From the NCBI GenBank assembly GCA_963815115.1, contig CAWFFN010000005.1, positions 960,001 through 1,024,000 of the forward strand: a stretch of DNA of 64,000 nt, in the 5' to 3' direction. Below, one piece after another: positions 1 to 64,000 of this stretch (the stretch's first letter is position 1; each line of letters starts with the position of its first letter). The notes under the pieces are model-generated. The model saw only the letters and a list, made by a program, of their open reading frames with translations, was not told the DNA's origin and did no database searches. The stretch comes from an uncultured delta proteobacterium. GTDB taxonomy: Bacteria; Desulfobacterota; Binatia; DP-6. Position numbers and translations under genes: made by a program.

Positions 1-1822
1 TCGATGGACGCGCTCCACACGGTGTACTCCGCCGGGCTCGTGTCCGACGGCTACCAGCTCGCGAAGACCGCGATCATCGATCTCCGCGGCAACCAGGGCG
101 CCGTCGACATCCACCTGAACTGGCGCGCGCTCGAGGTTCGCGCCCGCCTCGACAACGCGAATGGCAACCACGACAACCAGCTGATCTGGGCCTTCGGCAG
201 CCCCATCACGCCGGGTGCGGCGCTCGCCCTCAGGTCCTTCCTCACCATGGACGCATGGCTCACGAACATCGAGAACGACGCCAGCAACGACCCGATCGAG
301 CTCAAGGTGGTGAACGACAAGCCCGTGGGCGCGACCGACATGTGCATCGTGGCCAACGGCGCCACCGACGCGCAGATCGTCGACGTCGGCCTCTCCAATC
401 CCGCCTGCCCGGTCAAGTTCCAGTCGTCGCCCCGCCAGGTCGCCGGCGGGCCGCGTAGCGAGGACGTCTTCAAGTGTCAGCTGAAGCAGCCCGACTTCGA
501 CAGCCCCGACTACAACGGCGTGGTGTTCTCGGACGATCAGAAGGCCCGGCTGGCGGCCGTCTTCCCGGACGGGGTCTGCGACTGGACCCTCCCCGGCGTC
601 GGGCAGGTGCCCTCGGACGGTGGCTCGACCTTCAAGAACGGTCCGGGCGGCGAGCCGCTCGGTGAGGCGCCGACCTCGATGGTGGTCCCGCCGGTGTGTG
701 GCGACGGAGAGGTGATCGGCGAGGCATGCGACGACGGGAACACGGCCAGCGGTGACGGCTGCTCCGCCACCTGCACCGTCGAGCCCGGCTATGCGTGCAC
801 CGGAAGCCCGTCCGCGTGCGTCGCCATCTGCGGCGACGGCCTGATCGTCGGCGGCGAGACCTGCGACGACGGGAACACGAGCGGCGGCGACGGCTGCGCG
901 GCGACGTGCACGGTCGAGGAGGGCTGGACCTGCGCCGGCAGCCCGTCGGCGTGCGCGCCGATCTGTGGCGACGGGCTCGTCCGCGGCGGCGAGGCGTGCG
1001 ACGAGAGCGCCGCCAACGGCACGCTCGGGAGCTGCTGCTCGGCCACGTGCCAGTTCAAGGCCAGCGGCACGGCGTGCGACGACGGCAACGCCTGCACCAC
1101 CGGCGATGCCTGCGACGGCGGCACCAGCTGCGTCGGCGGGGCGCCGCCGAATTGCGACGACGACAACACCTGCACGGTCGACTCCTGCGACACGGCGACG
1201 GGATGCATGCACGATGGGCCCGCGCGTGACGGCTTCGCGTGCGACGATCACAACGGCTGCACGCAGGGCGACGTGTGCGCGAACGGGCAATGCGCCGGGA
1301 CCAGCGGCGCCGACGCCGACGGAGACGGATACTGTGACGCCACGGAAACGGCGGTCGGGTGCAATCCGGGCGACGCCGCCGAGATTCCGGCGCAACCGAC
1401 GACCTACGGCGGGGGACACGCGGCGGGAGACGTCCTCGTCACCTATCTCGCACCGAAGGACCGCAAGGTGAACAGGGCGACCGACCCGAGCTGTGCGACC
1501 GCGGGCATCTGCGGCGCGAACGGCTTCTGCACGGCGGGCAAGATCGCCGACCCGTGCACGACGAACGCGGAGTGCAACCTGCCGGCGAACACCTGTCGGG
1601 TGGTGGCGAACTACGGGGCGGCGCCCGATCTCGCGGTCCGGCGGCCGTTCAAGCTGAACCGGACGATCGTGACGAGCTTCGAGCCACTGACGCCAGGCTG
1701 CTCGCGCAAGGTGGGATCTGGCGATGGATCAGTCGCACAGGTCCAACAAGCTGAAGATCCAGGTGAGCGGGACGGTCGGCGGCCGGGTGCGCCGCGACAC
1801 CGACACGTTCACCTATCGCTGA
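1..1822 (+). CDS. DUF6351 (tannase-like) domain protein with myxococcal Cys-rich repeats, 5'-truncated by the window, apparent +1 frameshift at ~1713
   Basis: Contains the DUF6351-type C-terminus (IIDLRG...DIH...RARLDNANG...DVFKCQLK...RLAAVFPDGVCDWT), then CGDG..GEACDDGN..GDGCSATC repeats and CDDGNACT repeats. After GCSRKV the listed frame becomes low-quality. Removing one G from GTGGGATCTG gives VDLAMDQSHRSNKLKIQVSGTVGGRVRRDTDTFTYR-stop at 1820-1822, directly before a hairpin. Confidence 0.75.
694..1300 (+). repeat. Cys-rich protein repeats (three CGDG...CDD/CDE myxococcal-type units followed by CDDGN/CDDxN-CT units)
   Basis: Visible in the translation: VCGDGEVIGEACDDGN, ICGDGLIVGGETCDDGN, ICGDGLVRGGEACDES, then CDDGNACTTGDAC, CDDDNTCTVDSC, CDDHNGCTQGDVC. 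Confidence 0.85.
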
Positions 1823-1831
1823 GACGGGGGA

Positions 1832-1861
1832 GGAGGGGCGGGCGATGCGGCCCGCCCCTCC
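1832..1861. terminator. GC-rich hairpin between convergent genes (probable bidirectional terminator)
   Basis: GGAGGGGCGGGC-gatgcg-GCCCGCCCCTCC is a perfect 12-bp stem between stops at 1822 (+) and 1876 (-). No U-tract. Confidence 0.6.
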
Positions 1862-1875
1862 GGTCTCCGCGGACG

Positions 1876-3174
1876 TCAGGTGGCCGAGCCGTGCGGCCGC
1901 CGAGCTCGCTCGCCAGAGGTCCGGCCCTGGGCGTCGAGGATGAGGAGCGCGAGATCCACGCGCAGGCGCGCCTCGGGGTCGGCGAGGTCGATGCCGAAAC
2001 GGCTGCGGAGCTGCTTCAGGCGGTAGGTCAGCGTGTGCGGGTGGACCGAGAGCGCCGCCGCCGCGACCTTGACGCGATAGCCGCTCCGGGAGAGGTGGCG
2101 CAGGGTCTCCAGGTAGGCGCGCTGGCCGCTCGGCGTCAGGGGAGCGAGCACGCGCTGTACGAAGGCATCGGCCTCCGGAGAGCCGATGCCGACGAGGTCG
2201 AGCACCGCGAGGTCGGCATAGCGGTGCACCCGCTGCTGGTGACGCAGGATCGTTCCGATGCGAAGCGCACGCAGCGCTTCGCGGGCCGACCGGCGCGCGC
2301 CCGCGAGGTAGCGTGCGGCGCCCCCGAGGCCGACGCGCCGCTCGTCCCCGTGCAGACCCTCGGCGACGGCCTCCAGGTATCTGGCGTCCGGCTCTCCGGG
2401 CAGGAGCGCGACGAAGCCTTCACGGGAGTGGCCGACCCAGGTCGCCGCTTCCGGCATGCGGCTCGCGAGCAGGCGGCGCACGTCGTCGGGCGCGACCGTC
2501 GCGCTTTCCGTCGCCGTGGAGGCCGCCGGACCGAAGATGGCGACCGCGTGCAGCTCGTCGAGCGGGACGCCGAGCGCCCGGGCACGCGCCTCGAGCAGGC
2601 TGTCCGCCGCGTCCTCGGAGAGGAGCAGCTGGAAGAACTCGTCGACGTCCTGCTCCCGGAAGCGTGACAGGCGCTCGCGCTCCTCGACGTAGGACTCCGT
2701 CAGGGCGCTCATCAGCCTCGTCTGATTGGAGAGGATCAGGTCGACCCGTTCGAGGAGCTGGGCGCGCAGGACCGGATCCTGGCCGACGAGCTCGATCAGG
2801 TGCTCCCAGAGCAGCGTGAGGCCCGCCGCGAAGAAGGTGAGGTACTCGCCCAGCGGCGTGCCCTGCGCCGCGCGTTGCCGCGCCATCTGGCGCGAGTGCT
2901 CGAGATCCTCGGAGGTGAGCGCGCGGCCGGCCTGGAGCGTGACGCGGTAGAAGAGCGTGACGTGGTGGAGCACGCTCTCGCGCACCTGGGCGAGGCGGGC
3001 CCTCGGCAGCCGGCGGTAGTGCGGCAGCCGCTTCAGGCAGTGCTCGACGATCAGGCGCGCCCGGGTACGCCGCCCCAGGTACGCACGTCGGATCAGCGCG
3101 AGAAGCTCGGTCGGGACGGTGGCTCGGTCGGCGCGCTGCGCCTCGCGCCGGGTGCTGCGGCCCGCGCCCTCCAT
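1876..3174 (-). CDS. PucR/CdaR-family transcriptional regulator (RsbRD_N-like domain plus C-terminal HTH)
   Basis: C-terminal LETLRHLSRSGYRVKVAAAALSVHPHTLTYRLKQL is the HTH_30 signature. SAREALRALR...VHRYADL is typical of the family. Start codon uncertain. Confidence 0.88.
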   Translation of the reverse strand: MEGAGRSTRREAQRADRATVPTELLALIRRAYLGRRTRARLIVEHCLKRLPHYRRLPRARLAQVRESVLHHVTLFYRVTLQAGRALTSEDLEHSRQMARQRAAQGTPLGEYLTFFAAGLTLLWEHLIELVGQDPVLRAQLLERVDLILSNQTRLMSALTESYVEERERLSRFREQDVDEFFQLLLSEDAADSLLEARARALGVPLDELHAVAIFGPAASTATESATVAPDDVRRLLASRMPEAATWVGHSREGFVALLPGEPDARYLEAVAEGLHGDERRVGLGGAARYLAGARRSAREALRALRIGTILRHQQRVHRYADLAVLDLVGIGSPEADAFVQRVLAPLTPSGQRAYLETLRHLSRSGYRVKVAAAALSVHPHTLTYRLKQLRSRFGIDLADPEARLRVDLALLILDAQGRTSGERARRPHGSAT

Positions 3175-61395: not shown

Positions 61396-64000
61396 ATGAG
61401 GGAGCGACGAGATGCGTGCACACGCCCGGGCGGGCTGCACGTGCCAGGGCGCCTTGCCGTAGCCGTCCTCGCGGCAGCGCTGGTCTTCACCGGACCGGCC
61501 CGCCGGGCCTTTGCCGGGACCGGCTGCCTGATCAACGAGAATCCGCCGGCGCACGGCGCCACGGCCACGGGCAGCATCGTGCCGATGGTGGGCTTCACGT
61601 GCCCGCCGGCCGGGCCGGTGGACGGCGGCGGTCACTTCTACGCCGGCACGTTCAACATCACCGTCGACGGCGATCCCACCCTGGGCTACTGCATCGACAT
61701 CACGCACCCCATCAGCAACGGGCAGTGCGAGCCGCAGGCGCAGTTTCCCGATCTTCCCTGCGAAGCGGTGTGGATCCTGAACAACTACTACCCCAAGGTC
61801 GCCAGCCCGCCGGGAGCCCTGGCGAGCCCGGGGGACGAGGCCGCCGCGACCCAGATCGCGATCTGGCACTTCACCGATTGCTTCACCGCCGAGCCGGACA
61901 CCGACTCGGACATCCTCGACCGCGCCGACCAGATCATCGCCGACGCGGCCAACCATCACAGCTGCGTGGCGCCGACGGCGCCCCAGAACATCACCATCAC
62001 GCCGCCGAGCGCGACCAACGTCCTGCCGCAGGACCCGCAGCACTGCGCCACCGCCCACGTCGCGGACACGAACGGCGACCCCGTCGCCGGGATCGAAGTG
62101 GTCGTCACGGTCGCCAACGGTCCCTCGGGCTCGGTCGGGCCGATCACCGGGACGACGGACCAGAACGGCGACTTCCCCTTCTGCTACAGCAACGCGAACC
62201 TGCTTGCCGGCGGCCCGGACCACATCACGGCGACCGCGCACTACACCGTGTCGACGGGCATCGCGTTCAAGCAGCAGGGCATCCAGGGCATCGTGATCGC
62301 CGGGCAGGACGCCGACGCGGCCGCCACCGGCACGGCGGTCAAGAACTGGGTCACCAACCAGTGCGGCGACGGCAGCGTCAACCAGGTGACCGAGCAGTGT
62401 GACGACGGCAACCAGGTCAACGGGGACGGGTGCGACAACAACTGTACCCCCTCCACGTGCGGCAACGGCATCGTCGCCGGGAACGAGCAGTGTGACGACG
62501 GCAACACGATCGACGGCGACGGCTGCGATTCGAACTGCACGCCGACCGCATGCGGCAACGGCGTCGTCACCGGCATCGAGCAGTGCGACGACGGCAACCA
62601 GGTCGACGGCGACGGCTGCGACCACAACTGCCAGCCGACCGGGTGCGGCAACGGCGTCGTGACGCCCCCCGAGCAGTGCGACGACGGCAACGCCGTCGAG
62701 GGCGACGGCTGCGACACCAACTGCACCACCTCGGGCTGCGGGAACGGCATCGTCGCCGGGAACGAGCAGTGTGACGACGGCAACCAGATCAACGACGACG
62801 GGTGCGACAACGACTGCCGGCCGCCGCGCTGCGGCAACGGCATCGTCGACGCTTCGCACGGCGAGACCTGCGACGACGGGAACGCCGTCAACGGCGACGG
62901 CTGCGACTCGAACTGCACGCCGACGGGCTGTGGCAACGGCATCCCGACGCCGCCCGAGCAGTGTGACGACGGCAACCAGGTCAACAACGACGGCTGCGAC
63001 ACCAACTGCACCTTCCCGGGCTGCGGAAACCACATCGTGAACCCGCCGCTCGAGCAATGTGACGACGGTAATCACAACAACGACGATGGCTGCGAGAACG
63101 ACTGTACGCTGCCGAAGTGTGGCAACGGCATCGTCGATGCGTCGCACGGCGAGCAGTGCGACGACGGCAACCAGGTCAACGGCGACGGGTGCGACGACAA
63201 TTGCACCACGAGCGTCTGCGGCAACGGCATCGTCGCCGGCAGCGAGGAGTGCGACGACGGCAACCAGACCAACGGCGATGGCTGCGACACCAACTGCAAG
63301 ACCACCCGGTGCGGCAACGGCGTGGTCAGCGGGACCGAGCAGTGCGACGACGGCAACAACGCGAATGCGGATGGCTGCGAGGCCGACTGCACGCTGCCGC
63401 GGTGCGGCAACGGCGTCGTCGATCAGGCGCAGGGCGAGCAGTGCGACGACGGCAACACCGCCGACGGCGACGGCTGCTCACACGACTGCAAGCTCCAGGA
63501 GATCTGCACCGACCTGATCGACAACGACGGCGACGGGCTGGTCGACTGCGACGACGTGCTCGATTGTCACTGCCAGGTCTTCGGCAAGGACCCGGCATCG
63601 ATCGTGTTCGTCCCGAACAAGCCCGGTCTGGACAAGTTCAAGGTCCACGGGCGCATGACGCTGGCAAACGCCAGCGCGATGTTCTCTTCGAAGTTCGGCG
63701 TCCTGCTGACCAACGCCAACGGGACCATCTTCCGCGGCGTGCTCGACGCCGGACAGCTGGTGAAGAAGGGCAGCGGCGCGCTCTTCAAGAACAAGACCGC
63801 CAACCACACCGGCGGCCTCTACAAGGTCCAGATCAAGAGCAAGCTGGGCTACGTGAGGATCCAGATCCAGTCCTACTCCGATCTCGGCCTGGCGACGGTG
63901 CCGCTCATGGGCGTGCAGGTGCTCCTCGCCGGAGAGGAGGCCTACTACAAGGCCTCGTGGCAGAAGCGGCCGAACGGCTGGAGGCTCCAGCTCCCGCCGA
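61396..64000 (+). CDS. secreted thioester-domain (TED/TQXA) adhesin-like protein with 12 myxococcal Cys-rich repeats, 3'-truncated by the window
   Basis: Translated by hand; absent from the ORF track because there is no stop in the window. Order: signal peptide (...ARRAFA), GYCID, WILNNYYP, AAATQIAIWHF, Ig-like insert, IQGIV, 12x CGNG...EQCDDGN...GDGC...C, EICTDLIDNDGDGLVDC, Lys-rich C-terminal domain. Confidence 0.88.
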   Translation, partial: MRERRDACTRPGGLHVPGRLAVAVLAAALVFTGPARRAFAGTGCLINENPPAHGATATGSIVPMVGFTCPPAGPVDGGGHFYAGTFNITVDGDPTLGYCIDITHPISNGQCEPQAQFPDLPCEAVWILNNYYPKVASPPGALASPGDEAAATQIAIWHFTDCFTAEPDTDSDILDRADQIIADAANHHSCVAPTAPQNITITPPSATNVLPQDPQHCATAHVADTNGDPVAGIEVVVTVANGPSGSVGPITGTTDQNGDFPFCYSNANLLAGGPDHITATAHYTVSTGIAFKQQGIQGIVIAGQDADAAATGTAVKNWVTNQCGDGSVNQVTEQCDDGNQVNGDGCDNNCTPSTCGNGIVAGNEQCDDGNTIDGDGCDSNCTPTACGNGVVTGIEQCDDGNQVDGDGCDHNCQPTGCGNGVVTPPEQCDDGNAVEGDGCDTNCTTSGCGNGIVAGNEQCDDGNQINDDGCDNDCRPPRCGNGIVDASHGETCDDGNAVNGDGCDSNCTPTGCGNGIPTPPEQCDDGNQVNNDGCDTNCTFPGCGNHIVNPPLEQCDDGNHNNDDGCENDCTLPKCGNGIVDASHGEQCDDGNQVNGDGCDDNCTTSVCGNGIVAGSEECDDGNQTNGDGCDTNCKTTRCGNGVVSGTEQCDDGNNANADGCEADCTLPRCGNGVVDQAQGEQCDDGNTADGDGCSHDCKLQEICTDLIDNDGDGLVDCDDVLDCHCQVFGKDPASIVFVPNKPGLDKFKVHGRMTLANASAMFSSKFGVLLTNANGTIFRGVLDAGQLVKKGSGALFKNKTANHTGGLYKVQIKSKLGYVRIQIQSYSDLGLATVPLMGVQVLLAGEEAYYKASWQKRPNGWRLQLPP
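62362..63492 (+). repeat. 12 tandem myxococcal Cys-rich repeats (93-99 bp; DUF4215-type)
   Basis: Units start at about 62362, 62458, 62551, 62644, 62737, 62830, 62929, 63022, 63118, 63217, 63310 and 63403. Confidence 0.92.

Follow-up and report, generated by a model that had tools for sequence, protein, structure and literature searches.

A candidate class II-type thioester domain on a cysteine-rich stalk in a diderm bacterium of the Binatia lineage

The window analysed here is a 64,000-nucleotide stretch of the forward strand of contig CAWFFN010000005.1 (positions 960,001 to 1,024,000) from an uncultured delta proteobacterium of the Binatia lineage (assembly GCA_963815115.1). At its right-hand end lies an open reading frame (ORF) at 61396-64008 (+), which encodes an 870-residue protein with a predicted thioester domain (TED) as its N-terminal head. 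The reading frame is open from 61300, translation is taken from the ATG at 61396, and the stop falls at the window-equivalent position 64006-64008 (L004:1300-4008). The last two codons and the stop are thus beyond the window, and the protein ends in ...WRLQLPPNS, of which the final two residues are encoded past the window. A strong Shine-Dalgarno sequence, AAGGGAGGG, is placed 5 nt before the ATG. The GC content at third codon positions (GC3) is 0.93, the same level as in the adjoining genes. Upstream, an intergenic stretch of 265 bp begins with a terminator-like hairpin right behind a major facilitator superfamily (MFS) transporter gene, beyond which lie genes for a sulfatase, a glutathione S-transferase (GST), topoisomerase subunits and a ketoacyl synthase. 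Downstream follow genes for a glyoxalase, an esterase, a glycoside hydrolase family 1 (GH1) glycosidase and a TetR regulator. The TED gene looks like a separate unit among housekeeping or unrelated neighbours. The protein is divided as follows.

61396..61515, + strand: start and signal peptide, residues 1-40, with a basic n-region, an LAVAVLAAALVF core and a cleavage site between AFA and GT (site read by eye)
61516..61977, + strand: TED N-terminal lobe, residues 41-194, with YCID (Cys99, 61690-61692) on its strands, plus three helices, TQIAIW (61849-61866) being in the second
61978..62265, + strand: Big_1 (intimin/invasin)-type seven-stranded beta-sandwich insert, residues ~195-290, behind helix 3
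62266..62361, + strand: return segment, residues 291-322, which holds Gln297 (IQGIV, CAG 62284-62286), the candidate thioester residue, along with the final long strand
62362..63495, + strand: stalk, residues 323-700, of 12 acidic Cys-rich repeats of 31-33 residues, isoelectric point (pI) 4.05, matching DUF4215 x12 and TIGR02232 x12
63496..63582, + strand: linker QEICTDLIDNDGDGLVDCDDVLDCHC, residues 701-729, Asp-rich, with 4 Cys, kept in homologues
63583..64000, + strand: basic C-terminal beta-sandwich domain, residues 730-870, with the last two codons and the stop at 64001-64008

The signal peptide suggests that the protein is exported via Sec, and its homologues likewise begin with signal peptides. 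Two other export signals were considered and set aside. A lipoprotein reading does not fit, as Cys44 lies 13 residues beyond the hydrophobic core, has no lipobox and is found in this protein alone. A Tat signal was rejected by eye only, with the RR at residues 4-5 distant from the hydrophobic core and outside any consensus. An initial annotation of the window, made from the nucleotide sequence, had picked out this overlooked ORF and its Sec signal, the 12 acidic Cys-rich repeats and the basic C-terminal domain, all of which are borne out here. Its residue numbering is also correct (Tyr98-Cys99 with TGC at 61690-61692, TQIAIW at 152-157, and Gln297 with CAG at 62284-62286). The absence of LPXTG that it reported for the visible part extends to the true C-terminus.

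Curated models confirm the head as a TED at the sequence level. Pfam TED (PF08341) matches residues 98-185 with 46 bits against a cut-off of 22, and NCBIfam TQXA_dom (TIGR03934) matches residues 125-161 with 32.5 bits against a cut-off of 30.4. A Big_1 immunoglobulin (Ig) domain is matched by Pfam below threshold at residues 218-263. The family membership proposed in the initial annotation is thereby upheld, since the TED, TQXA and DUF4215 profiles that it had named for a HMMER check all match above cut-off. Automatically assigned Pfam labels in the sequence collection already mark the proteins of this group as TED.

We characterized the conservation of the head using an exhaustive HMMER search, which returned 406 proteins (cluster representatives) at E<=1e-3. 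The head alignment comprises 45 sequences, the query and 44 homologues from this search, 26-53% identical to the query head. PF08341 matches 43 of the 45 aligned sequences and Big_1 matches 36. Cys99 is kept in 44/45 sequences and is preceded by Tyr98 in 41, with Phe in the remaining four. Gln153 and Trp157 of TQIAIW are present in 44/45 and 45/45, respectively. Gln297 is found in 44/45, with one gap, and Gln293 and Gln294 vary freely. Because overall identity is only 26-53%, the conservation at Cys99, Gln153, Trp157 and Gln297 is selective. The remaining cysteines of the head recur in only 2-16 sequences. The mature head contains nine cysteines, of which Cys99 alone is conserved, and the odd one of the nine is therefore most probably Cys99. 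This agrees with the proposal in the initial annotation of nine mature-head cysteines with one free and reactive. Its choice of Gln297 in IQGIV as the partner likewise stands. The alternative glutamines that it listed as 292 and 293 do exist, but they are residues 293 and 294 and are variable.

The three short motifs of TEDs can be recognised in the head. In the available text of the defining studies, the thioester Cys belongs to the motif [YFL]C-Phi-zeta, the Gln in a separate Phi-Q-zeta-Phi-Phi strand motif, and the TQxx-Phi-W helix does no more than brace the backbone of the Cys (Walden 2015, PMC4450167; Miller 2018, PMC6194298). As far as the same sources extend, the thioester Cys and Gln are the sole universally conserved residues of proven TEDs (PMC4450167; PMC6194298). 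Here the first motif is YCID, with Cys99 at the end of the predicted strand 53-59, and the second is TQIAIW within the predicted helix 105-121 (both in head numbering), with Val replacing Thr in most homologues. The third is IQGIV, in which the +2 and +3 positions are aliphatic throughout. Gln153 of TQIAIW was considered as the thioester Gln and ruled out, given the conservation of Gln297 and the separate C-terminal strand motif described for the reactive Gln in the accessible parts of PMC4450167 and PMC6194298.

An AlphaFold2 (AF2) model of the head, computed from the head alignment, has a mean predicted local distance difference test score (pLDDT) of 83.6 and a predicted template modelling score (pTM) of 0.76, and is poorly defined only over mature residues 1-16 and in the first repeat of the stalk. 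It contains the two parts of the TED fold, a beta-barrel lobe and a three-helix lobe. The predicted chain begins with N-terminal strands, one of them ending at Cys99, and continues through three helices (TQIAIW is in helix 2) and seven strands to the strand of Gln297 and a long final strand. In head numbering, the helices span 82-90, 105-121 and 131-147, the seven strands lie within 158-245, and the strand of Gln257 follows; strands 259-262 and 266-280 of the return segment have a block pLDDT of 88-96. In Foldseek, the model hits first the three class II TEDs with solved structures (6fwv, 3.8e-10; 6fwy, 9e-10; 6fx6, 9e-5), and then the class I TED of Cpa near 4e-4. The alignments to TED structures cover model residues 14..266/292, and thus both the Cys and the Gln. 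In class II TEDs, according to the portions of Miller 2018 (PMC6194298) at hand, the place of the linker behind helix 3 is taken by a sandwich of seven strands, and the Gln is brought back to the N-terminal lobe. The predicted layout of the head matches this class II type in the order of its elements. The Ig-like insert suspected in the initial annotation is therefore real, and by the element order of the AF2 model it sits at the position of the class II beta-sandwich as outlined in the same text (Miller 2018, PMC6194298).

Behind the head, Pfam DUF4215 matches the protein 12 times (226 bits in total) and NCBIfam TIGR02232 (myxo_disulf_rpt, cysteine-rich acidic repeat) also 12 times (316.7 bits). 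Each of the 12 stalk repeats contains exactly four Cys. Pfam detects DUF4215 repeats alone between head and tail, with no CnaB-type isopeptide or ester stalk domains. In the linker at residues 701-729 Pfam finds no match and AF2 confidence is low. The homologues follow the consensus EICTDLxDNDGDGLxDCDDPDC, which in our reading of the sequence resembles MopE/TSP3-type metal-binding motifs. The host genome has 52 DUF4215 matches over many frames. At the other end of the window, a 5'-open ORF at 1-2667 (+) combines a tannase-like DUF6351 domain with DUF4215 repeats and a Dicty_CTDC-like repeat; DUF4215 stalks therefore carry enzymes as well in this genome.

The C-terminal 141 residues have a pI of 10.2 and no Cys. 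They are predicted to form a beta-sandwich, with core pLDDT >90, for which fold searches gave no convincing structural relative and the Pfam and NCBIfam searches no family; Atlas matches were to unnamed clusters only. In each of the 16 homologues aligned the domain is Lys/Arg-rich and basic, with pI values of 8.7-11.6 and net charges from +2 to +14. Residues 700-870, used as a search query, found eight proteins including the protein itself, five with a TED, one RCC1-propeller protein from a Binatia metagenome-assembled genome (MAG; P0156) and two weak partial matches. A tail profile search among longer proteins found 12 including the query, nine of them with a TED and the others being a DUF4215 fragment, P0156 and two unannotated proteins. 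The tail word-index search scored the 8000 best candidates. By these sequence searches, the tail is tightly coupled to this TED and is almost always found with it. In the host genome the tail profile gives one strong match, the protein itself, and two weak ones, to a MopE-repeat protein (E 2.7e-6) and at E 0.0098. A general multi-cargo sorting signal was considered for the tail and rejected, because the host genome has just this one strong match and only two weak extra ones. The MopE-repeat frame is a stop-to-stop frame, G000:C5:1406045-1407634 (L085:1-1590, +), with seven MopE-type metal-binding Cys motifs, and its C-terminal stretch is the weakly tail-like part (hmmsearch E 2.7e-6).

The host genome (6.9 Mb, 70% GC, 100% complete by marker genes) encodes just one TED, the protein described here. 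It has three Omp85/BamA-type proteins, one LptD and four secretins. A search for sortase (PF04203) found none in this complete genome and was positive in three Gram-positive controls. Since the outer-membrane proteins are present and sortase was not found, the host is, by its gene content, a diderm without sortase. This supports the diderm envelope proposed in the initial annotation. The outcome that would have spoken against that proposal, an LPXTG signal past the window in a monoderm host, was looked at and does not occur. The protein itself has no LPXTG and no hydrophobic C-terminal tail, and hence not the LPXTG-plus-sortase arrangement of TIE proteins. The Por_Secre_tail of the type IX secretion system (T9SS) has no Pfam match in it at E up to 1, and the same model matches the related protein P0048 at 30.5 bits.

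To place the protein among its relatives, loci were searched in a species-level genome collection, where 340 of 599 pattern hits could be confirmed; the 80 best of them were retained. The closest of these are from MAGs labelled Candidatus Binatia, 'Polyangiaceae bacterium UTPRO1' and 'delta proteobacterium' (42-51% identity), and the next are from Ignavibacteria, Melioribacteraceae and similar (30-39%). Eight of 40 relatives' genomes contain a homologue, the best only 56% identical, and the gene is therefore, on sequence evidence, patchy and fast-evolving. Of these loci, 26 are of Binatia type (L006-L030 and L072). Eighteen of them encode, in one frame, the head, a C-terminal domain of the same kind and 6-14 repeats between the two; at five, repeats are present but a contig end or an apparent frame change interrupts them, two have a different, DUF7450-like tail and one is a short fragment. 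The DUF7450 proteins form a second Binatia architecture, in which the TED head is not followed by Cys-rich repeats and DUF7450 stands at the end (L024:5821-7770, L029; P0020, P0025). Among the other loci, 31 of 53 have a T9SS-like tail at the end, as scored with a motif pattern of our own devising. Por_Secre_tail is confirmed by Pfam for P0048, where nine SdrD_B domains and a TED accompany it, and for one member of the head alignment (A1). P0098 consists of a TED, six SpaA-like domains and LPFTG. We also took a census of tails in the 150 best-scoring of the 406 cluster representatives, 109 of which contain the TED N-terminal lobe, with the following result.

T9SS-like: 28/109 by a strict pattern, and some ten more by eye
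Binatia-type: 9/109
C-terminal membrane helix with basic end: 7/109
WGxIK-type end: 5/109
LPXTG-like: 1/109
Other or incomplete: 59/109

These sequences indicate that one head, always N-terminal, is reused with differing envelope-specific C-termini. Since in distant relatives the head is N-terminal and the T9SS tail or LPXTG is C-terminal, the comparison supports a distal head and a cell-proximal C-terminus. Short TED-head proteins also occur (P0042, P0045, P0055, P0057 and P0103, about 300 residues each), ending in a W-G/S-x-I/V-K-x-x-Y/F-R motif.

The explanation that we regard as best overall, and as probable, is a thioester-forming TED head displayed on the Cys-rich stalk, with the C-terminal domain holding the protein at the surface. 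After Sec export, the protein would fold oxidatively in the periplasm, where the Cys counts allow up to 30 disulfides (24 in the stalk, two in the linker and four in the head). Cys99, left unpaired, would attack the side-chain amide of Gln297, and loss of ammonia would leave a buried Cys-Gln thioester; as in TEDs of solved structure, the Cys backbone would be braced by Gln153 and Trp157 from the TQIAIW helix. That this thioester forms autocatalytically is suggested by the family to which the head belongs, the conserved residues and the predicted fold. The protein would cross the outer membrane by some route, and the genome encodes secretins. By analogy with TIE proteins and the T9SS-tailed relatives, the N-terminal head would be presented on a rigid acidic stalk that keeps it off the C-terminal end. 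A nucleophile on the target surface, most likely a Lys amine, would then open the thioester to give an intermolecular isopeptide bond, a capture modelled on what the available text reports for SfbI (Walden 2015, PMC4450167). The C-terminal domain, which takes the position of the Gram-positive LPXTG or the Ignavibacteria T9SS tail, most likely holds the protein on an anionic surface or matrix of the cell, this being the least secure step of the reading. Judged from the sequence, the stalk may in addition be stabilised by Ca2+, the head may contain four disulfide pairings, and the protein may be surface-displayed and act as an adhesin.

Several observations weigh against this interpretation. Superposition of the model on class II TEDs is loose, with template modelling (TM) scores of 0.34-0.42 and a root mean square deviation (rmsd) of ~10 A over both lobes. 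Because the rmsd is this large over both lobes, the model shows a lobe arrangement that differs from class II TEDs or is uncertain. In a single-sequence phmmer search of the head against PDB sequences no match was significant, the best having E 0.65 and FNE (5dcq) E 1.4. With the head profile the top PDB match is intimin (2.4e-10), as the Big_1 insert dominates the matches, and the TED entries follow at 7.5e-4 (4c0z), 1.2e-3 (5dcq) and only 0.043 (6fwv, BaTIE). In the query, Gly occupies the zeta position of the Gln motif; 16 homologues have Gly there and 10 have Lys. One homologue, P0054 (417 residues), has Ser at the thioester-Cys position with the partner Gln kept, so that members need not all be reactive; by its sequence it may be inactive or may form an ester. 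We could see in the protein neither a known anchor nor a lipobox, a T9SS tail or a PEP-CTERM, and no conserved secretion or anchoring neighbour gene is common to 20 related loci. Finally, the tail has no known fold relative, which leaves its position and charge to speak for an anchoring role.

Several of these points bear on other explanations. If the want of a recognisable anchor is taken at face value, the protein could be released, with one polymer or surface bonded covalently by the TED and anionic polymers (EPS, LPS, DNA or mineral surfaces) bound by the basic tail, so that it cross-links biofilm matrix or particles. The strongly basic tails of 16/16 homologues beside a strongly acidic stalk, the same tail on the RCC1-propeller protein P0156, and the DUF4215 repeats that carry enzymes in the host genome would all suit such a protein. 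We nevertheless consider it unlikely, though the most credible of the alternatives, since relatives with recognisable sorting signals have C-terminal cell attachment (T9SS tail or LPXTG), which favours a cell-proximal C-terminus.

It is less likely still that the head has the TED fold but none of the thioester chemistry, and serves as a non-covalent binding or structural module in which Cys99 is reduced, disulfide-bonded or otherwise used. Eight other head cysteines could mispair, and both the Ser of P0054 and the slightly off-consensus Gly of the Gln motif would be tolerated. Such a module would not explain why Cys and Gln are each kept in 44/45 sequences at 26-53% identity when the other head cysteines are not, why these are the two residues that the accessible text of PMC4450167 and PMC6194298 gives as the only universally conserved ones in proven TEDs, or that one head cysteine is left without a partner, their number being odd.

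We see a slim chance that the TED has its own target in the tail. Each molecule's thioester would capture a Lys on the tail of the next, giving covalent head-to-tail fibres, a self-assembling and sortase-free counterpart of a pilus in a diderm. The coupling of tail and TED in nine of 12 profile-search proteins and 18 of 26 Binatia-type loci would be expected of such fibres, as would the Lys/Arg-rich tails of all 16 homologues and the failure to find another anchor. The tail alignment has no invariant Lys, and the tail also occurs on the RCC1-propeller protein, both of which count against fibres. A complex prediction of the head alignment with the tail alignment gave a score of 0.00 without controls, and carries no weight either way on head-tail binding. 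A tether inside the envelope, in which the thioester bonds a peptidoglycan amine or an outer-membrane protein, is very improbable: a Sec signal alone is evident, and neither a partner gene nor a dedicated signal for outer-membrane export was found, but the extended stalk (378 residues, 12 repeats) is unlikely to fit the periplasm, four secretins in the genome could serve export, and the T9SS- and LPXTG-tailed relatives are surface proteins, as are all characterised TEDs in the available text of PMC4450167.

The best structural matches to this head are the class II TEDs of TIE proteins (BaTIE 6FWV, EfmTIE86 6FWY and SaTIE 6FX6). The head shares with them the triad of YC.., TQxx-Phi-W and C-terminal Gln strand and, as far as the consulted portions of PMC6194298 describe them, the seven-stranded sandwich between helix 3 and the Gln strands. 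The N-terminal head behind a signal peptide and the repetitive stalk are also common to TIE proteins. Identity to class II TEDs in the structural alignments is 14-17%, and the insert, at ~95 residues against ~75 in class II, can here be recognised as an Ig domain of Big_1/intimin type. The stalk consists of disulfide-rich DUF4215 repeats in place of CnaB isopeptide or ester domains, and unlike TIE proteins this protein lacks LPXTG and belongs to a host without sortase and with an outer membrane. In class I TEDs (Cpa, SfbI, FbaB, CpTIE 5A0G and FNE 5DCQ), a short linker stands in place of the sandwich insert, and in Foldseek their E-values are poorer than those of class II by about six orders of magnitude. 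The nearest relatives outside the Binatia type are the unpublished Ignavibacteria and Melioribacteraceae TED proteins (e.g. P0048; L033-L084), with the same head subfamily at 30-39% identity, an AAAVQxAIW helix and a Big_1 insert. They resemble this protein in the N-terminal head, long stalk and diderm hosts, but differ in a stalk of SdrD_B/CnaB-like domains and a C-terminal Por_Secre_tail. The thioester domain of complement C3/C4 and alpha-2-macroglobulin, including Gram-negative bacterial A2M, is an alpha-alpha toroid with a CGEQ motif. It is unrelated to the TED, and the MG likeness reflects a generic Ig-like fold. Compared with DUF4215/TIGR02232 myxo_disulf_rpt proteins, the 12 repeats here score far above cut-off and act as the spacer of a TED protein; a published function for the repeat was not found among the matches listed.

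TED adhesins are treated as a Gram-positive feature in the available text of the main studies (Walden 2015, PMC4450167; Miller 2018, PMC6194298), and a 2026 preprint, in the part accessible, places TEDs in Firmicutes and Actinobacteria. Among the matches listed in a literature search on thioester domains and Gram-negative bacteria there were only Gram-positive TED work and complement/alpha-2-macroglobulin, and no TED of this type in a diderm. Searches combining thioester domains with T9SS, Bacteroidetes, diderm, Myxococc* or PEP-CTERM gave none among the matches listed. What is particular to this protein is the combination of a class II-type head passing curated models, a DUF4215 stalk and a dedicated basic tail. 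If the thioester forms, covalent "harpoon" adhesion would be a general bacterial strategy, used also by environmental diderms, and the targets would be other than host proteins. The anchoring solutions, a basic tail domain without known relative among them, are new. The head could also interest protein-ligation engineering because it is small, would be self-activating and tolerates a disulfide-rich context.

In the neighbourhood of related TED genes, sensor histidine kinases are the sole gene family that recurs, although none is found at the window locus. They lie within 6 kb (<=6 kb) of the TED gene in nine of 20 Binatia-type loci, with differing architectures (CHASE8/HAMP, PAS, GAF); examples are L008:8327-10294, L009:1510-3501, L014:1717-4245, L017:3451-5292, L021:3212-4834 and L072:2306-5620. 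We judge this neighbourhood to be non-specific, and it may reflect chance in kinase-rich genomes. Lysyl oxidases modify lysine amines, the groups that TEDs target. In one MAG, a protein combining lysyl-oxidase and CARDB domains is encoded 3 kb downstream of the TED gene (L006:11040-12623, +), a proximity that may be coincidence.

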